Below are positions 35,492 through 42,487 of a stretch of 64,000 nt of DNA, piece by piece. The notes beneath the pieces are model-generated. The model ran no database searches, was not told the origin of the DNA, and saw only the letters and a list, made by a program, of their open reading frames with translations. The stretch's first letter is position 1. Every line of letters starts with the position of its first letter. The DNA is taken from assembly GCA_963833025.1 (NCBI GenBank), contig CAWHWI010000001.1:1948170-2012169 (forward strand). Reading direction: 5' to 3'. The position numbers and the translations under genes are program-made. The stretch is from an uncultured delta proteobacterium. GTDB lineage: Bacteria > Desulfobacterota > Binatia > Binatales > Binataceae.

Positions 35492-36850
35492 TCAAACGAC
35501 CGGGTCGAAATCGAGTGCGCCGCTGCGCGCGACCTGCGCGTACCAGTGGCCGCTCTCCTTGACGATTCGCTGCTGCGTCTGGAAGTCGCAGTACACGATT
35601 CCGAAGCGCTGCTGGAATCCCTCGGCCCATTCGAAGTTGTCGGTGAACGTCCACAGAAAATATCCGCGCACGTCGGCGCCCGCCTTCATCGCGTGCCCGA
35701 CCTCGCTGATAAACCGGCGGAGGAAGCTGATGCGGCGCTGGTCGTTGACCTTGCCGTCGGCGCCCGGCTGGTCGCCGTATGAACATCCGTTCTCGGTTAC
35801 GTAGATCGGAATACCGGGGTAGTCTTTGGTGACGCGCAGGATCATTTCCGACAGCGCTTGCGGATGGACTTCCCATCCGAAGTCGGTCACTTCACCGCCG
35901 CGCGCCCTGACCTGCTTCACGCCCATATTGTGATCGTTCGAATCGTGCGCGACCACGGCGCGCGTGTACAGGTTGATCCCGATGAAGTCGAGCGGAGCTT
36001 TGACGACGTCCATGTCGCCCGCGCGCATCTCGACGCGATCCTCGACCGAACCGCGCAAGTAAGCCTGCGGATACCTGCCGTGCATCACGGGCTCGAGGAA
36101 CCACATGTTGTAAAATCGATGCCACCGCTCGGCCGCCGTGCGATCCTCGAGCGACCCGGTTTCCGGATGCACCGAGGACATGCTGAAGGCGGTGCCGACC
36201 GCCTCGGGCTTGTTCTTGGATTCGCGGATCGCCTTGATCGCCATCCCCTGCGCGAGATTGACCGTATGCGTCGCCTTGATCGCCAGGTCGGGTTCGCGGC
36301 GTCCGGGCGCGTGTGCGCCCATCAGGTAGCCGAGGATGGTAAAGATCCACGGCTCGTTGAACGCCATCCAATGCTTCACGCGATCGCCGAGCGAGTCGGC
36401 TACCGCGGCGGCGTAGTCGCGGAAATATTCGGCGAGGTCGCGATTGGGCCATCCGCCGGCGTCCTCGAGCGCCTGCGGCAGGTCCCAATGATAGAGCGTC
36501 ACCCACGGCTGGATGTTGCGCTTGAGCATCTCGTCGACGACCCGGCCGTAGAAGTCGAGGCCCTTTTGATTCGCAGGACCCTTGCCGGTGGGCATGATGC
36601 GCGGCCATGAAAGCGAGATGCGCGCGGCGTTGAGACCGAGCTGTTCCATCAGCGCGATATCGTCGGCATAGCGATGATAGAAATCGCATGCGACGTCGCC
36701 GGTGTCGCCCTGCTTAATTTTGCCGGGCGTATGCGAGAAGCGATCCCAGATGGACTCGCCCTTGCCGTCTTCCTTGCAGCCGCCCTCGATCTGATAAGAA
36801 GCGCTGGCAGTGCCCCACAGAAATCCCTTCGGAAATGAAGTTGGCGCCAT
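35492..36850 (-). CDS. GH1 beta-glucosidase
   Basis: FLWGTASASYQIEG, TLYHWDLP, FNEP acid/base, YVTENG nucleophile, DNFEWAEG. Confidence 0.96.
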   Translation of the reverse strand: MAPTSFPKGFLWGTASASYQIEGGCKEDGKGESIWDRFSHTPGKIKQGDTGDVACDFYHRYADDIALMEQLGLNAARISLSWPRIMPTGKGPANQKGLDFYGRVVDEMLKRNIQPWVTLYHWDLPQALEDAGGWPNRDLAEYFRDYAAAVADSLGDRVKHWMAFNEPWIFTILGYLMGAHAPGRREPDLAIKATHTVNLAQGMAIKAIRESKNKPEAVGTAFSMSSVHPETGSLEDRTAAERWHRFYNMWFLEPVMHGRYPQAYLRGSVEDRVEMRAGDMDVVKAPLDFIGINLYTRAVVAHDSNDHNMGVKQVRARGGEVTDFGWEVHPQALSEMILRVTKDYPGIPIYVTENGCSYGDQPGADGKVNDQRRISFLRRFISEVGHAMKAGADVRGYFLWTFTDNFEWAEGFQQRFGIVYCDFQTQQRIVKESGHWYAQVARSGALDFDPVV

Positions 36851-36922
36851 AGAGCGGTTTGTTATCACAGCGATAACAACATGGCGACCCCACCGCTCTG
36901 ACGCCTGAGTCTTCCTGCTACC

Positions 36923-37255
36923 TCACGCGGCCAACAACTTCCTGACTGCTGTTGCCACCGCTCGTTGGTCAGAGGCCGAAAGACCTCCCGCCTTGTGCAC
37001 GATCAATCGGTTGTCCAGGGTGAAGAGTTTCATTCGAACCTTCGATCGCGCCCGGAGTCCCGCCGCTGCAGAATCAATCGCCACGTCCATCGGCCAAGGC
37101 GGATTTGCGGCGCTCGTGATCATCGCAAGCACCGTGTGACCGCTCGCACTACTGAAGGTTTCTGATGAAAGAGCGAGCGCTGGGCGGCGCTTGACGGTCC
37201 GACTGTCTGTGAAGGGAAACGGCACAACGACGACGTCGTATCGCTTACAGGTCAC
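36923..37255 (-). CDS. PemK/MazF family toxin
   Basis: DVVVVPFPFTD...KRRPAL.LS, AMITS; GTG start overlaps the antitoxin end. Confidence 0.9.
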   Translation of the reverse strand: MTCKRYDVVVVPFPFTDSRTVKRRPALALSSETFSSASGHTVLAMITSAANPPWPMDVAIDSAAAGLRARSKVRMKLFTLDNRLIVHKAGGLSASDQRAVATAVRKLLAA

Positions 37256-37505
37256 CGTAAGCCTTCTCGTCGTGGTCCGAGTTCCACTCCGAGAGAGTCT
37301 TCTCCAGAGCCGCAAGAAACTCGAGGTCCAGAGGCTCGGCCTTGCGGATGCGGACCGTTCCGGCTTGCGACTCCTCGAAAATCACCGTATCTCCGGGCTC
37401 CAAATGCAGCTTTCTGCGAACCGGTAGCGGCACGGTAGCTTGGCCCTTGCTCGTCAGCCTGCTGCTTGCGATTGCTCGAACGGCAGAATGTCTGGAACCT
37501 CTCAT
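37245..37505 (-). CDS. AbrB/MazE/SpoVT family antitoxin
   Basis: SRLTSKGQATVP..VR..L.L.PGD.V.F; acidic tail EWNSDHDEKAYGDL. Confidence 0.9.
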   Translation of the reverse strand: MRGSRHSAVRAIASSRLTSKGQATVPLPVRRKLHLEPGDTVIFEESQAGTVRIRKAEPLDLEFLAALEKTLSEWNSDHDEKAYGDL

Positions 37506-37589
37506 CGCTGAATTGCTGGGTATTACGTTCTTACCATATTACTCTTGTGATTTTTTGATAGCAATTGGTTCTCTTGCTCCGCAGTGTTA

Positions 37590-38000
37590 CTAATTTGAAT
37601 TCCTAAGATACTTTCGGAGTTCTCGCTCGACTTGATCGGGCTTCTTGAGGGCACACTCCCAAATCACCAAAGCTGACCAGCCGAGCGTTTTCAGCCTTCT
37701 CAAGTTGAGCAAGTCGCGGCGGCGGTTGTGACGGAGTTTAGGCAGCCAGAAGTCTCGGTTGCTTTTCGGTGGTCGGCCTCGCCTGCACGAATGCCGATGC
37801 CAGAAACAACCGTTGACAAAGATAACTTTGCGCCGGGAGCGAAACACGATGTCCGGTCGGCCAGGGAGTTCCCGCGCATAAAGCCGATAGCGGTAACCGA
37901 GAGAATAGAGCAGTCGCCGAACGGCGATTTCTGGACGGGTATGCACGGCGCGCACACGCGCCATCATGCTGCTTCGCTTTGCGGAAGTTACCGAATCCAT
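37590..38000 (-). CDS. vsr: Very short patch repair endonuclease
   Basis: RSSMMARV...TRPE, LPGRPDIVF, FVNGCFWH, FW..K...N..RD, GW..LVIWEC. Confidence 0.95.
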   Translation of the reverse strand: MDSVTSAKRSSMMARVRAVHTRPEIAVRRLLYSLGYRYRLYARELPGRPDIVFRSRRKVIFVNGCFWHRHSCRRGRPPKSNRDFWLPKLRHNRRRDLLNLRRLKTLGWSALVIWECALKKPDQVERELRKYLRNSN

Positions 38001-38170
38001 CACGCCCTAGCGTCGCCACTATGTTCGAGCAATTCCTTGACCGACGATAGCCGATCTCAGACGCCAGCAGCCATCAGGGGCGTACAGCGCAACGTCCGAT
38101 GCACGCGCACGAAATTGTAGTGCGCGTAGTGGAGCGCAACCGACGCTGTCAGATTCGCCAATTTCTTCCT
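38000..38170 (-). mobile_element. C-terminal remnant of an IS1-family-like DDE transposase, with an internal stop
   Basis: Manual translation KKLANLTASVALHYAHYNFVRVHRTLRCTPLMAAGV*DRLSSVKELL resembles the IS1-like tail KK.EN....ALH...YNF.R.H.TL..TPAMAAG..D..WS..EL. TGA at 38057-38059. Confidence 0.75.
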
Positions 38171-38222
38171 AGCGACAGGCTCGCTCGAAAATGTCATTGT
38201 GCCCTACCGAGAGGAAAGGCAG

Positions 38223-39380
38223 ATGGCACCGAAAGGGGCAAAGACCGGGGGCACGGTCATCGATTTATTCAGCGGCTGCGGCGGCTTCTCATTGGGAGCC
38301 GAATCGGCGGGTTTTCGCTCGTTGGTTGCGGTCGACATCGATCCGACTCTTCAATCGGCGTTCCGACGCAACTTCCCCGGCTCGCATGCGATTGAAGGCG
38401 ATCTTTCGGAAATCGACGGCACCGCTTGGGGCCAATTCATAGGGAAAGTAAGGCCGGACGGGGTAATTGGCGGTCCGCCATGCCAAGGCTTTAGCCGTAT
38501 CGGAAGACGACGAAAAGATGACCCTCGCAACAGTCTGATCCACCACTTCTGTAGGCATGTCGCAGCACTCAAGCCCAAGTTTTTCATAATGGAAAACGTA
38601 GAGGGACTCCTCGACGATGACCGCATCACCGTCCTGACCCACGCACTGGAGACCTTAGCGGCGAAATATCGCGTGCTGTCGCCCTTCATGGTCAACGCCG
38701 CAGACTTCGGTGCGGCAACGAATCGCTATCGCGTAGTAATTATCGGCTACGATCCGGAAGAGGTCGACCCGCTGATCGTGCCTATGTTTCAACCGAAGCC
38801 TCCGACGCATCCGGCGACCGTGCGGCAAGCTATTTCGGATTTGCCGACACCGGTTCCCGAGTCGAAAGACGAAGAAGCCAGTTTCGGCTGGGCCAAGTAT
38901 CCGTCAGGCGACTCTGCGAAACTGTCCAAATATGCGCGCCGATTGCGGATGCCGCCGGTCAGCGGTCTTGGATGGAGTAAGGCGATCGGTATGCACAGAG
39001 ATGGTTTCATTTCAGGTCTAACGTCTACCCGACATAGCCACGCCGTGGCGAGTCGCTACGCGAGAATCGCAAGTGGAAAGAGCGATCCTATAACCAAGTC
39101 CTACCGTCTCGATTGGGATGGACAGTGCCCCACGCTGCGCGCTGGCACTGACCGCGATAAGGGAGCTTTTCAGGCCGTGCGCCCGCTACATCCGGGCAAC
39201 GGGCGCGTGATTACCATACGCGAAGCGGCTCGGCTACAAGGATTTCCAGATTGGTTCGTATTTCATCCGACAAAATGGCACAGCTTCCGCATGATCGGTA
39301 ACAGCGTCTCGCCCGCCGTTTCTCGCGGTATCCTTGCCGCGATTGCCACGAAAATGCAGACTTCCGCTCTTGTGAAGTAG
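38223..39380 (+). CDS. dcm: DNA (cytosine-5) methyltransferase
   Basis: Motif I DLFSGCGG, IV GGPPCQGFS, VI ENVEG, VIII TNRYRV, IX REAARLQGFP, X IGNSVSP. Confidence 0.96.
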   Translation: MAPKGAKTGGTVIDLFSGCGGFSLGAESAGFRSLVAVDIDPTLQSAFRRNFPGSHAIEGDLSEIDGTAWGQFIGKVRPDGVIGGPPCQGFSRIGRRRKDDPRNSLIHHFCRHVAALKPKFFIMENVEGLLDDDRITVLTHALETLAAKYRVLSPFMVNAADFGAATNRYRVVIIGYDPEEVDPLIVPMFQPKPPTHPATVRQAISDLPTPVPESKDEEASFGWAKYPSGDSAKLSKYARRLRMPPVSGLGWSKAIGMHRDGFISGLTSTRHSHAVASRYARIASGKSDPITKSYRLDWDGQCPTLRAGTDRDKGAFQAVRPLHPGNGRVITIREAARLQGFPDWFVFHPTKWHSFRMIGNSVSPAVSRGILAAIATKMQTSALVK

Positions 39381-39425
39381 AACACAGTCGGTCACCATTG
39401 ACTCTCCTGCGAGGAGAGCAATCAA

Positions 39426-41090
39426 ATGGCGCAGAAGGGGAAGCCGTTCTCGGTTAACACTGAACCAACAAAAGTTGCGGTAGTTACCAGCCTAACGCGC
39501 GATCTGACCGTCGACGCCTGCGTCTTCGATCTCATCGACAACTCGATCGACGCCGCACGAGATACGATTTTCAAGAATGAGCCACCAGCAGCACGTAAAC
39601 AGCTACCGGATTCATTTGAAGACTTCCGTATAAAGCTGACACTGAACGGGTCTGCATTCGAGATTTCCGATAACTGCGGCGGTATCCCGGTCAGCAATCT
39701 CAAGCGGCTAGTCCTGCGTTTTGGACAAATCTCCGCGCATGAAATGGGTATCGGCGCGTTCGGAGTCGGATTGAATAGGGCGCTCTTTAAGTTAGGGCGC
39801 GTAAGCCATCTCGAAACCGATACGGGTGGCCAGCGTTCGGAATTGACTCTGGACACGGATGAATACCTGAAATCGAAAGGTTGGGGTTTCACCGCCACGG
39901 AGTTTCCATCTACCGGCAAGATCGGGACGGATATAAAAGTCAGCAAATTGCGCACCGAAATCGCGAGCGCGCTTGCAGACACCGATTGGGAAAAAGAGAT
40001 TCGCAAACAAATCGGCCGCAGATACGCAAGATTCATCGCGAAAGGGTTGTCGATTGTGGTGAATCAGACTCCGGTGGAAAGCGAAGAGGTCAAGATTCGC
40101 ACGGACGGTCCTTACGAAGGCGGATACAAATTCTACAAAACCGAGAGCGGCGTCTCCATCCACATTCAGTATGGTCAGCACGCCGACCATCGTTTCACGA
40201 AGGAACCTGGTTACGATCTCGAACGTAACAAATCGTTGACTAGTCAGTTCGGCTGGACGGTCTTGTGCAATGATCGCGCGGTAATCATTTCCGACAAGAC
40301 CGCTAAAACGGGTTGGGATACCAAATTCCATAGCGAGTTCTACGGCTTTGTCGGCTTCGCCAGTTTTTTAGGTAATCCCGTCGCATTGCCGTGGAATACT
40401 ACGAAGGTCGATGTCGATTTGAACAACCCGGCGTATCAAACGGCGCTGATTGATATGCGGCACTTTGCAGAAAAGTGGCGCGCGCTCTCGGAGCGACGTA
40501 AGAAAGCGGCCACGCCGCCGTACCCGGTCCCAAAGAAGCCGGTCAAGCCGAAGGCCCAGAAAGTCAAAAAAGCTCCGGTCGCGAAACCCGTAACAAAAGT
40601 CGACCACAATCAGAGCAACACGGTTCTTCCAGACGACGTAGACGAGAAGCTCTGTTTTGACAAGCATCTGGCGTTAGTCCACGAAGGTAAAGACCTCGAC
40701 TTGCTGACTTCAACCTATTCGGGACTTGCAGTAATCAGGATGCTCTTCGAATCCACGGTGGTCGCCAATTTGATACGCCAGAATAAATACGCCGAGCTTG
40801 TAAAATTCGCTATCGATCACCGAAGGAAACATGGCGTGAAGTTATCAGCCGAAGATGAAAAGGACGTGATCCCGCAAATGGAGGAGATGTTGCTGTTCCT
40901 TCATAAGAATGCGCCCACATGGGCTGGAGGGAAAACGAACTATCTAAAGCACAGTTTGAGCCGAATGGCTTTCCACTCAAAGATGTTGAACAGTGCAATA
41001 CACAACCCATTTCAGCAAATTCATCGAAGCCAAGCCTTTCAAATCCGTGACGAAGTACTGCCTATCTTGCGGCATCTAATCGAAACGTGA
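39426..41090 (+). CDS. GHKL (MORC-like) ATPase with a C-terminal HEPN-like domain
   Basis: DLIDNSIDA, ISDNCGGI, IGAFGVGLNRA; S5-like CNDRAV..LPWNTTK; Lys/Pro linker; tail LAVIRMLFE...LNSAIHNP. Confidence 0.8.
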   Translation: MAQKGKPFSVNTEPTKVAVVTSLTRDLTVDACVFDLIDNSIDAARDTIFKNEPPAARKQLPDSFEDFRIKLTLNGSAFEISDNCGGIPVSNLKRLVLRFGQISAHEMGIGAFGVGLNRALFKLGRVSHLETDTGGQRSELTLDTDEYLKSKGWGFTATEFPSTGKIGTDIKVSKLRTEIASALADTDWEKEIRKQIGRRYARFIAKGLSIVVNQTPVESEEVKIRTDGPYEGGYKFYKTESGVSIHIQYGQHADHRFTKEPGYDLERNKSLTSQFGWTVLCNDRAVIISDKTAKTGWDTKFHSEFYGFVGFASFLGNPVALPWNTTKVDVDLNNPAYQTALIDMRHFAEKWRALSERRKKAATPPYPVPKKPVKPKAQKVKKAPVAKPVTKVDHNQSNTVLPDDVDEKLCFDKHLALVHEGKDLDLLTSTYSGLAVIRMLFESTVVANLIRQNKYAELVKFAIDHRRKHGVKLSAEDEKDVIPQMEEMLLFLHKNAPTWAGGKTNYLKHSLSRMAFHSKMLNSAIHNPFQQIHRSQAFQIRDEVLPILRHLIET

Positions 41091-41226
41091 GGTTACTATT
41101 TGGCCCATCGGCCTTCGCGGCTTTTCGGGCGTTCGCACGAAGCTGCGTCTTCGATAACTTCGCCGCGCGCGAAAAATGCGCGCTTCATCGGACCCTCACC
41201 TTCGCGACAACGGAGCGCGAGAAATT

Positions 41227-41275
41227 ACCGGGTGCAGAGCCTGTCCTGAGCGAAGCCGAAGGAAGTCACCCCTGC
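41227..41275 (+). repeat. Family A palindrome with nested insert
   Basis: GGGTGCAG-AGCCTGTCCTGAGCGAAGCCGAAGGA-AGTCACCCCTGC, nearly identical to 856-905. Confidence 0.85.
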
Positions 41276-41545
41276 CAACCGTTGTCATCCCGCTATGGCA
41301 CAATATTCACCATGACTGCCGCAACCGCTCCCGCCGACTCACGGCCGCACGCCACTGGCCTCCTCACCACTATCCACTCACCACTCGAATTTGCCTTCAC
41401 TCCCTCTGATCATCGGATTGTCTCGGGGCCTCCCCAACGCGTTCCTTCATCGCGAGCGTATACCAACGGAGAAATGGAGGAGAAACAACATGTCAACAAA
41501 ATCAGCAAATCGGCTGATTTTTCATTTTCAAACAGTGTTTGTTGG

Positions 41546-42487
41546 CTACTCGCCCTTGGATTCGAGCCAGCGTTCGGCGTCTATTGCTGCCATGCAGCCG
41601 GTGCCTGCTGCGGTTACTGCTTGGCGGTAGACGCTGTCTACTACGTCGCCGGCGGCGAAGACGCCGTCGACGTTGGTGTAGGTCGAGCCCGGTTTCACTT
41701 TCAGATAGCCGATTTCGTCCATCTCGAGCTGGCCCTTGAAGAGCGCGCTGCTGGGATTATGGCCGATCGCGACGAACACGGCGTCGGTCTTCTTGTCGGT
41801 GAGTTTGCCGGTCTTGAGATTTTTCAACTTGACGCCGCTCACGCCCTGTTTCTGCTCGCCGATGATTTCTTCGATCGTCGAATCCCAGATGAACGAGATC
41901 TTCGGATTCTTGCGCGCGCGATCCTGCATGATCTTCGATGCGCGCAGCGTGTCGCGGCGATGCACGACGCTCAGCCTGCTGACGAAGCGGGTCAGGAAGT
42001 TCGCTTCCTCCATCGCGGTGTCGCCGCCGCCGACCACGATCGCTTCCTTGTTTTTGAAGAATGCGCCGTCGCAGGTGGCGCACGCGCTGACGCCGTAGCC
42101 CATCAGGCGCTTTTCAGACTCAATTCCCAGGAGTTTGGCGGTTGCGCCGGTCGCGATGATCACGGCCTCGGCCTTGACTACCTTGCCGTCCGCGACCAGC
42201 TCGAAAGGCCGCTTGCCGAAGCGCACCTCGGTCACCGCGCCGCTCATGAAGCGCGTGCCGAAGCGAGTCACCTGGCGGCGGAACACGTCCATCATCTCGG
42301 GGCCCTGGATGCCGTGCTCGAAGCCGGGATAATTTTCGACGTCGGTGGTGATAGTGAGCTGGCCGCCGGGTTCGTATCCTTCGATGAGGAGCGGATTGAG
42401 ATTGGCGCGCGCCGTGTAGAGCGCCGCGGTCAGTCCGGCGGGGCCGGAGCCAAGAATTACTACCTTGTTGATATCGTCAGTCATCAT
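41546..42487 (-). CDS. trxB: Thioredoxin reductase
   Basis: GSGPAGLTAA, ENYPG, GVSACATCDG, GGGDTAMEEA, YRQAVTAAGTGC. Confidence 0.97.
   Translation of the reverse strand: MMTDDINKVVILGSGPAGLTAALYTARANLNPLLIEGYEPGGQLTITTDVENYPGFEHGIQGPEMMDVFRRQVTRFGTRFMSGAVTEVRFGKRPFELVADGKVVKAEAVIIATGATAKLLGIESEKRLMGYGVSACATCDGAFFKNKEAIVVGGGDTAMEEANFLTRFVSRLSVVHRRDTLRASKIMQDRARKNPKISFIWDSTIEEIIGEQKQGVSGVKLKNLKTGKLTDKKTDAVFVAIGHNPSSALFKGQLEMDEIGYLKVKPGSTYTNVDGVFAAGDVVDSVYRQAVTAAGTGCMAAIDAERWLESKGE

Follow-up and report, generated by a model that had tools for sequence, protein, structure and literature searches.

PD-lambda-5 from Escherichia coli ECOR7 is a validated and broadly protective anti-phage system, and the account of Vassallo et al. 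2022 that covers it reports an effect on all but one of ten phages, the need for a host with the mcrBC-mrr region deleted, a description as a compacted combination of restriction-modification (R-M) and abortive infection (Abi), and the label ParB/HEPN plus methyltransferase. Here, we analyzed a stretch of 64,000 nucleotides (the window) from an uncultured delta proteobacterium of the Binataceae (contig CAWHWI010000001.1, positions 1,948,170 to 2,012,169, forward strand), in which a gene for a C5 cytosine DNA methyltransferase (dcm) is followed by a gene for a MORC-type ATPase with a C-terminal tail (Table 1). Both systems are two-gene cassettes of a DNA methylase and one larger protein (~450-510 aa in PD-lambda-5), the C-terminal ~170-aa domain of PD-lambda-5 protein A is a predicted homologue of the window tail, and an R..(F/L)E helix and a His are conserved in both. 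In contrast, PD-lambda-5 has a ParB-like N-terminal module where the window protein has a MORC GHKL+S5 ATPase, its methylase is of the D12 Dam type and acts on N6-adenine whereas the window encodes a C5 cytosine enzyme accompanied by Vsr, and the window residue R541 is Trp in PD-lambda-5-like tails.

The general idea behind such a locus has been published before (Iyer 2008; Orlowski and Bujnicki 2008; Anantharaman 2013). The MORC/paraMORC neighborhoods of Iyer, Abhiman, and Aravind 2008 link GHKL+S5 ATPases to cytosine methylases and Vsr as the window does, and a C-terminal extension after the S5 domain is shared with those MORCs and with the fusions of Anantharaman 2013, but a helicase or restriction endonuclease (REase)-fold gene is linked in ~70% of the MORC operons described by Iyer 2008 and none is linked here. 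GHKL-HEPN fusions in R-M neighborhoods were described by Anantharaman 2013, where a logic like that of PrrC/RloC was proposed; the true Ymh tail of its paraMORC-Ymh HEPN fusions is found in one relative of the window protein (locus L036) and not in the window. Both Iyer 2008 and Anantharaman 2013 are purely computational. PrrC/RloC resemble the window protein in fusing an NTPase to a C-terminal HEPN-type RNase (HEPN-like by sequence in the window), and the PrrC anticodon nuclease is restrained by a linked R-M system; they differ in having an ABC ATPase, a canonical Rx4-6H HEPN domain, and a type I R-M partner. VcSduA/paraMORC3 (Shedu type I-D) likewise joins an N-terminal GHKL ATPase to a C-terminal effector in one polypeptide, restricts phage directly, and loses its anti-phage activity in both ATPase and effector mutants, but its effector is a DUF4263 PD-(D/E)xK DNase, it has no methylase partner, and it belongs to a different GHKL subfamily. 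Neither a link between a MORC tail and PD-lambda-5A nor an exchange of MORC for ParB was found in print in a literature comparison made mostly on titles and not covering the Tiamat preprint supplement (Data S1). Two further candidates were rejected: the Caulobacter ScmA/VsrA work, which mentions no ATPase and in which vsrA is unlinked, and the HEF_HK/Response_reg_2 system of Bellieny-Rabelo 2021, whose domains did not appear in our Pfam scans.

Table 1. Positions of the features discussed, numbered from the first letter of the window
Feature	Positions	Strand	Remarks
MazF-like toxin	36923-37315	-	PemK_toxin 3.3e-15
AbrB/MazE-like antitoxin	37245-37505	-	MazE_antitoxin 2.1e-6
vsr	37590-38003	-	Divergent from dcm; Pfam, NCBIfam, and PADLOC matches
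vsr/dcm intergenic region	38004-38222		Divergent; dcm ribosome-binding site GAGGAAAGG just 5' of ATG 38223
dcm, C5 cytosine DNA methyltransferase, 385 aa from ATG	38223-39380	+	Mechanical open reading frame starts at GTG 38199
MORC-type GHKL ATPase with C-terminal PD-lambda-5A-like tail, 554 aa	39426-41090	+	
Bergerat ATP-binding domain, residues 30-154	39513-39887	+	HATPase_c_3 1.4e-8
Motif I DLIDNSIDA, residues 35-43	39528-39554	+	
Motif II DNCGGI, from residue 82	39669-39686	+	
Motif III GIGAFGVG, from residue 108	39747-39770	+	
MORC signature GWTVLCNDRAV, residues 276-286	40251-40283	+	S5/transducer region
K327	40404-40406	+	Invariant; S5 region
Lys/Pro-rich basic linker, ~residues 352-395	40479-40610	+	
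Tail domain type A, residues 396-554	40611-41087	+	~160 aa
Tail residues R438 and E442	40737-40751	+	
Tail residues L521-N522...H526	40986-41003	+	
Tail residue R541	41046-41048	+	

The dcm and ATPase genes form a two-gene operon transcribed divergently from vsr. They lie on the same strand with a spacer of 45 nt and the ATPase gene has its own GAGGAG site; the methylase open reading frame runs from 38199 to 39380, and ATG 38223 is a likelier start than GTG 38199 because a ribosome-binding site lies directly 5' of it. A preliminary description of the region, made from the sequence alone, had proposed this operon at 38223-41090, and reading frames, spacer, and ribosome-binding sites agree with it; every string it quoted is present in the ATPase (DLIDNSIDA, LAVIRMLFE at residues 434-442, LNSAIHNP at residues 521-528, and the Lys/Pro linker).

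Homologues of the ATPase are numerous, with 503 at E <= 1e-3 among 8000 candidates scored; the best 120 of the 503 cover 86-100% of the query (117 of these 97-100%), and a search of representatives at 50% identity gave 1375 with E <= 1e-3, 370 of them with E <= 1e-30. From one scan of GTDB species genomes we took 80 loci, in which genes were called by a crude picker as the longest non-overlapping open reading frames of at least 70 aa and then clustered. Two kinds of MORC occur in them, a short kind (~420-510 aa), followed in 39/80 loci by a ~325-aa PF20553 "Methyltransf_35" protein, and a long kind (546-627 aa) adjoining Dcm. Long MORCs carry tails of the window type (type A, 37 loci), of type B (3 loci), or of type C (3 loci), together with a single tail in L031 and a true Ymh HEPN tail in L036 (PF09509, 7.3e-34). 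A Dcm orthologue is present in all 37 type A loci, directly upstream and on the same strand in 34 of them, and the pairwise identities of Dcm and MORC co-vary (Spearman 0.73; 528 pairs from 33 loci). The cassette is horizontally mobile: the 37 loci span six phyla, 31 being from Pseudomonadota, the two-gene form is spread over several classes, and the flanks, apart from five loci with nuclease-type domains (below), hold housekeeping or mobile-element genes, the latter including an IS1595 transposase, a resolvase, an integrase, Tn7-like TniQ/TniB, prophage genes, a relaxase, and Thoeris-like TIR and SLOG genes; defense genes of other systems are thus among the neighbors. The IS1595 transposase gene cluster, of which one representative was scanned, recurs in seven loci. 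Searching plasmids and phages with the whole ATPase by tblastn returned matches to the N-terminal module only, in two plasmids and one phage.

The methylase itself is well defined, with matches to Pfam DNA_methylase PF00145 (7.5e-63), TIGR00675 (4.4e-47), and PADLOC MTase_II (2.8e-95), and its catalytic Pro-Cys motif (GGPPCQGFS), invariant in 33 Dcm orthologues, places it with the PF00145 fold among the C5 cytosine DNA methyltransferases. The best solved relative, aligned over the full length, is 3g7u_A (E 9.3e-89), a methylase whose structure is solved and whose function is undescribed. With the methylase of Pf phage PfAC20 the protein shares 44% identity. Conservation extends, in all 33 orthologues, to the stretch separating the catalytic motifs, which suggests that these enzymes have one common target sequence. 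The vsr product is equally clear (Pfam Vsr 1.6e-28; TIGR00632 3.7e-42; PADLOC Vsr 5.3e-27), and its position invites an explanation in which the locus serves methylation and repair, with the MORC protein as a MutL-like matchmaker that stimulates Vsr at the T:G mismatches made through Dcm. The GHKL+S5 architecture is common to MutL, E. coli MutL is functionally linked to Vsr (cited in Iyer 2008), and Vsr is adjacent here and present in 17 of the 37 type A loci. Against this, Vsr is missing from the other 20 loci and Dcm from none, Vsr also lies beside C5 methylases that have no long MORC (e.g., L063 and L077), and the mobile-element context and the exchanged effector-like tails described below, one of them HEPN, are marks of conflict systems, so that we give a repair function hardly any credence.

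No separate nuclease recurrently accompanies the pair. Scanned against Pfam, six window proteins showed no likeness to a restriction endonuclease and only two nuclease folds, Vsr and the MazF-like toxin, as the preliminary description had anticipated when it reported no adjacent PD-(D/E)xK or HNH gene apart from Vsr. We then considered the cassette's neighbors at distances of up to 2.3 kb in each of the 37 type A loci, where 154 candidates, minus five small overlapping reading frames and three large proteins (L013:14164-17679, L061:10315-16209, and L023:2504-5245), left 146 proteins for Pfam at E <= 1e-6, one scan per cluster. No nuclease gene recurs with the dcm-MORC pair in these 146; nuclease-type domains occur in five loci and are all different, namely ResIII+RE_endonuc (L007), HNH_2+MTaX1 (L013, where a second methylase adjoins), HNH (L017, a pyocin locus), PLDc_2 (L038), and SNase (L039). 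A Type II R-M system would have a cognate endonuclease of known fold beside the methylase; the six window proteins showed no restriction-type nuclease fold, and the 146 flank proteins no recurrent nuclease. The pair thus travels as a unit without a separate nuclease, and the idea that an REase common to such loci had simply been lost from the window fails.

By its sequence the 554-aa ATPase is assigned to the prokaryotic MORCs, with four GHKL motifs, the MORC S5 signature, a basic linker, and a ~160-aa tail. HATPase_c_3 was its only Pfam match, NCBIfam has no model for it, and a sequence search of the PDB with the whole protein found no solved relative; a profile of 56 homologues placed MORC3 (E 1.3e-3) and MORC4 best among solved structures, ahead of HtpG. 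Motif IV (GTDI, at residue 167) completes the Mg-ATP motifs I-IV that define the GHKL superfamily (ExxxNxxD, DxGxG, GxxGxG, and a GT motif), residues D38, N39, D42, D82, G86, G110, G113, and G115 are invariant in 56 diverse homologues, and D35 is conserved in at least 90%. The acidic pair of motif I is Asp-x-x-Asp and not Glu-x-x-Glu, a substitution the preliminary description had pointed out and which the profile alignment bears out, placing DLIDN of the window opposite ELLDN of MORC4; DxxDN is common in the relatives (45/46 long and 34/46 short MORCs). According to the portion of an eLife 2026 study that treats hydrolysis, MutL and GyrB need proton-accepting capacity in at least one member of the acidic pair for efficient turnover, and therefore the Asp pair need not abolish hydrolysis. 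The S5 signature that defines MORCs, GhXhhpXXRhl (Iyer 2008), is matched by the window protein and by 44/46 long and 38/46 short relatives, so the MORC-like assignment made in the preliminary description holds, and G276, C281, N282, R284, and K327 are invariant in 56 homologues. The linker that follows has a positive net charge in 38/38 type A proteins (median +7; median length, 57 aa).

The tail is where the effector function would reside. Counted over 45 long tails, with L036 left out, E420 (42/45), R438 (42/45), E442 (43/45, and Asp in the other two), N522 (38/45), H526 (42/45), and R541 (37/45) are conserved, and position 521 is L, M, or I in 43. The passages of Anantharaman 2013 that define the HEPN domain give an up-down bundle of four helices in which an insert separates helices 2 and 3, an Rx4-6H motif that closes helix 3 and whose Arg is followed by a polar residue, and an acidic residue in helix 2, and name Parep1/8 and c2405 as families that keep the His without the Arg. 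HEPN proteins are further marked by a composite site formed in the dimer. The order of the tail motifs matches this layout, with an early helix that bears an acidic residue, then a variable central part, and a hydrophobic-Asn-x3-His stretch before the last helix; N522 would be the polar residue after the Arg position and E442 the upstream acidic residue, the helices being assigned from sequence. No metal-binding nuclease motif was seen, and Pfam scans of the window protein and 34 tails gave no PD-(D/E)xK, HNH, GIY-YIG, or PLD match. An E/R/H site lacking an acidic metal cluster is characteristic of RNases that work without metal. By motif order the tail is HEPN-like, without the canonical Arg, and a HEPN fold for it is putative. 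Searched as a profile against the PDB, the tail gave chance matches to Hsp70 lids only.

Homology to PD-lambda-5 protein A gives this tail a validated relative. Matches to the PADLOC PD-Lambda-5_A models were found for 31/34 type A tails (best E 2e-8), and when 12 type A tails were run singly at E <= 0.01, 10 matched and two (L014 and L041) did not. Other tail types match the C-terminal ~170 positions of the same models (L031, 1.6e-37; L030, 1.3e-27; L069, 3.7e-23; L025, 1.5e-14), and local hhalign joins type A to the pooled other types at 95.2% (E 2.6e-8, 179 columns). On a Kosakonia plasmid, a 445-aa protein with a PD-lambda-5A-like tail is followed by a D12 Dam methylase, and the type A profile aligns with residues 284-442 of this protein at 76.8% (E 2.1e-5); blastn of the Kosakonia pair against E. 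coli genomes gave no match. From these profile matches, the window tail is a predicted homologue of the C-terminal domain of PD-lambda-5 protein A, a relationship that rests on the family profile. A profile search for the tail as a stand-alone protein of 92-333 aa gave four hits, each from a contig of less than 2.6 kb; the type A tail was never seen alone.

Trees built from the N-terminal module only indicate that tails have been exchanged on this chassis. The FastTree analysis of 86 rows recovers short and long MORCs as separate groups, each with support 99, and puts the window in a 24-row clade, all type A, made up of the window and 23 close loci (support 99). In an IQ-TREE analysis of 26 rows, L036 with its Ymh tail is sister to the type A protein of L042 (98/95), and L068 (type B) is sister to L069 (type C) (99/95); a single origin of type A appears in 0/200 bootstrap trees, and the well-supported branches force at least five tail changes. 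The proteins L036:7992-9632 and L042:1021-2853 share 60% identity across the N-terminal 395 residues and have unrelated tails beyond, a Ymh HEPN domain in L036 and a type A tail in L042, and an E. coli protein (L083) is 47% identical in the N-terminal module to that of Photorhabdus (L047) and has a different tail. Judged by these sequences, the MORC chassis has exchanged its tail repeatedly, in one case for a true, canonical Ymh HEPN domain. Such repeated exchange is the habit of effector modules in conflict systems, which argues that the type A tail plays the same role.

The same data bear on whether there is a nuclease at all. A MORC protein could instead clamp and compact or silence DNA without the Dcm mark, as a xenogeneic silencer whose tail is a dimerization or reader domain: the MORC signature is present, MORC3 and MORC4 are the nearest solved relatives, the linker is basic, Pfam detected no canonical nuclease fold, and C. 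elegans MORC-1 traps and condenses DNA in the part of PMC8277788 that describes it. However, the near-invariant E, R, E, N, and H of the tail resemble an active site more than an interface, the tail is exchanged with a HEPN RNase domain, and it shares homology with a segment of a protein able to block lytic phages, which leaves silencing very improbable in our estimation.

We propose, as a reading with about an even chance of being right, that the cassette is a self-contained, horizontally mobile, methylation-keyed defense in which a MORC clamp controls a HEPN-like nuclease tail. Dcm would mark host DNA at its target motif, and Vsr would repair the T:G mismatches that arise from deamination of 5-methylcytosine, limiting the mutational cost. 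The MORC protein would be both sensor and effector, its GHKL+S5 module dimerizing on ATP into a clamp and its basic linker holding nucleic acid; closure of the clamp on DNA without the Dcm mark would bring the two C-terminal tails together, and these would form a metal-independent nuclease through the E420/R438/E442/N522/H526 site. We infer the defense itself, the behavior of the clamp, the reading of methylation, and the chemistry and substrate of the nuclease. The strict linkage to Dcm, the mobile-element context, and the homology of the tail to a validated anti-phage protein that is paired with a methylase all fit methylation-keyed defense and, to that extent, the methylation-gated anti-phage system of the preliminary description. 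By its sequence the cassette is probably an immune system without a classical restriction nuclease. As to the target, we lean slightly toward cleavage of RNA, with abortive infection, over cleavage of DNA, because of the residue set, the swap with HEPN, and the RM+Abi description of PD-lambda-5.

Several observations pull the other way. (i) Taken by itself, the window tail scored against none of the PADLOC families, even with the cutoff at E <= 10, which is why its homology to PD-lambda-5A has to be drawn from the family profile, and PADLOC on the whole ATPase gave a single weak match, to PD-Lambda-5_A (E 0.011, residues 345-456). (ii) The preliminary description likened the R..E helix and the N...H site to HEPN motifs with the Arg not conserved, and this reading is accurate: both belong to the conserved core, and the canonical HEPN Arg position holds no Arg in any of the 45 tails. 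There is no Rx4-6H motif, and hhalign of the tail against a 28-sequence Ymh profile gave 0.3%, and of the whole tail superfamily 0.4%. Local hhalign of type A against the single Ymh tail of L036 also gave 0.3%, and PF09509 (Hypoth_Ymh) had no match in the window protein, nor in 34 tails even at E <= 10; with the Pfam match absent and profile probabilities of 0.3-0.4%, the tail is, by sequence, not a Ymh HEPN domain (PF09509/TIGR02391, RNxxxH). (iii) Matches to a HEPN family among the 34 tails are few, with DUF4145 in three (best E 0.044); DUF4145 is an accepted HEPN family in the literature, and these matches point weakly toward HEPN likeness. Other weak Pfam matches were to DUF6988 (four tails, best 3.7e-4) and DUF5677 (four tails). 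(iv) The HEPN label of PD-lambda-5 itself rests on weak HHpred hits, protein A being listed in Table S3 of Vassallo et al. 2022 with ParBc at 96.4%, DUF4145 at 35.6%, and HEPN_RiboL-PSP at 8%. (v) A 2026 preprint still calls defense by prokaryotic MORC/paraMORC proteins "proposed." (vi) A short MORC or PF20553 gene is present in 11/37 type A loci, so the pair may not always act alone. (vii) Orlowski and Bujnicki 2008 (PMC2441816) treat GHKL fusions as DNA restriction enzymes, which argues for a DNA target.

The final point deserves weighing, since it would make the tail a DNase and the MORC protein an ATP-dependent, Type II-like REase that cuts DNA without the Dcm mark. GHKL-fused REases presumably have a C5 methylase as partner, and strict Dcm linkage in 37/37 loci and a basic linker in 38/38 proteins suit such an enzyme. 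The REBASE-based classification of PMC2441816 counts GHKL-fused proteins as REases, either characterized (R.HgiDII, with a GHKL N terminus and a C terminus of unknown fold) or putative (four subfamilies, one of which, R.NmeAIP, carries a Hypoth_Ymh tail), and the window protein, compared by description only, has the same combination of a GHKL N terminus and a C terminus of unknown or Ymh fold. The preliminary description, in stressing that there was no restriction endonuclease, was right about a separate nuclease but overlooked this classification. For HgiDII, DNA cleavage is documented for the enzyme and was not seen attributed to the GHKL open reading frame itself; paraMORC3/VcSduA offers a GHKL-nuclease fusion that restricts phage directly. 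Set against this are the lack of a recognizable metal-binding nuclease motif or nuclease-family match in the tail, noted above, an E, R, E, N, H set that suits metal-independent chemistry, and the exchange of the tail with Ymh HEPN, a member of an RNase superfamily. Metal-independent nuclease chemistry needs a 2'-OH. On balance, we regard a DNase tail as unlikely, although the classification of Orlowski and Bujnicki 2008 makes DNA cleavage a strong rival.

The co-occurrence with short MORCs raises the question of whether the window holds a remnant, the working system being Dcm, long MORC, short MORC, and PF20553, with the long MORC alone inactive or regulatory. The window has neither partner, as a tblastn search of the whole 64 kb with 39 PF20553 sequences and 46 sequences of short MORCs found no further copy, the partners are present in 9/14 of the more distant type A loci, and two MORC paralogues could perhaps heterodimerize as MutL homologues do. 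Yet the window lies in the 24-protein type A clade, in which partners accompany only 2/23 close loci, all ATPase and tail residues are still conserved, and the two-gene form is found in several classes and in an E. coli island. We consider a remnant distinctly improbable and retain the self-sufficient, methylation-keyed pair as the preferred reading.

The short MORC and PF20553 protein are a conserved pair in their own right (e.g., L027, L037, L040, L043, L046, L050, L053, L059, L063, L066, L070, and L074-L079), occurring by itself, accompanied by a C5 or an N6_N4 methylase, or next to dndABCDE clusters, and the form with a C5 methylase is carried by the Pseudomonas Pf filamentous phage PP058144.1 (L082:280-3711). 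The PF20553 protein shows invariants like those of S-adenosylmethionine-dependent methylases (YxGxG, E, NxP, and WxDY), and three short MORCs and three PF20553 proteins (L036, L043, and L078) had no PADLOC v2 match. From its sequence the pair is a candidate modification-linked system without an obvious nuclease.

Two type A or related settings illustrate the company that the long form keeps. In L009 (4565-13911), the cassette has as neighbors a SLOG-domain protein, two proteins with TIR domains, one of them ThsB-like, and a large TPR/AAA protein, which suggests that it sits in a defense island. In E. coli ws5-3 (L083, NZ_CP110511.1 1143742-1146626), Dcm and a 574-aa MORC "ATP-binding protein," whose tail resembles type C, occupy a tRNA-Asn island next to an integrase, type IV pilus genes, and genes for conjugation; a DNA search matched 255/5426 E. 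coli genomes, and among the ten records listed six matched the methylase alone.

Around the window cassette, G+C content drops across 37-41.5 kb to 0.51-0.56, against ~0.62 on both flanks, in a trough bounded by a beta-glucosidase-like gene and trxB. The MazF/PemK-like toxin and AbrB/MazE-like antitoxin genes, which overlap by 71 nt, share this low-GC island with vsr-dcm-MORC; no such pair recurs in the related loci, and it is not conserved with the cassette. A 14-nt direct repeat, exact in its first 9 nt, lies at the edges of the ~4.6-kb island (36875-36888, AACAACATGGCGAC; 41484-41497, AACAACATGTCAAC) and could be an insertion scar or chance, with neither an integrase nor a tRNA nearby; the whole window yielded no tRNA. 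A dispersed repeat of ~50 nt, GGGTGCAGAGCYTGTCCTGAGCGAAGCCGARGGARGTCACCCCTGC, has two copies in the window (~857-908 and 41227-41278), the second inside a 455-nt non-coding stretch 3' of the MORC gene, and its 19-nt core had no match in 100 shuffles. A consensus scan found no promoter in the vsr/dcm intergenic region, promoter and terminator scans of the locus stayed at chance level, and Rfam gave no credible match over 36800-41700.

We also put forward, as a tentative generalization that is unlikely to be right, that the cassette is one face of a general architecture for immunity, composed of a nucleotide-gated clamp, an exchangeable tail that is a helical effector, and a DNA methylase, the DNA clamp being the MORC ATPase here and the ParB-like domain in PD-lambda-5. 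The tail without Arg would then be a new catalytic variant of the HEPN-like fold or a new fold, firing only upon closure of the clamp around unmethylated DNA, and prokaryotic MORCs would read methylation directly, in a form ancestral to the silencing of unmethylated or foreign DNA by eukaryotic MORCs.

Bacterial MORC/paraMORC proteins have been predicted to act in restriction-modification since 2008, and the cassette described here offers a minimal system for asking what their role is, with two genes and neither a helicase nor a classical nuclease. It is widespread and has a relative in a natural E. coli isolate, which makes it a tractable way to ask whether a bacterial MORC reads cytosine methylation, and L036 and L042 provide a clean natural domain swap that can be used experimentally and that points to the tails as interchangeable effectors. 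Homology of the tail links the cassette to PD-lambda-5, which is validated but whose mechanism is not known, and mutants of R438, E442, and H526 could explain both. If the logic of a clamp plus a methylase holds true, it would connect bacterial immunity with MORC-based silencing in eukaryotes.

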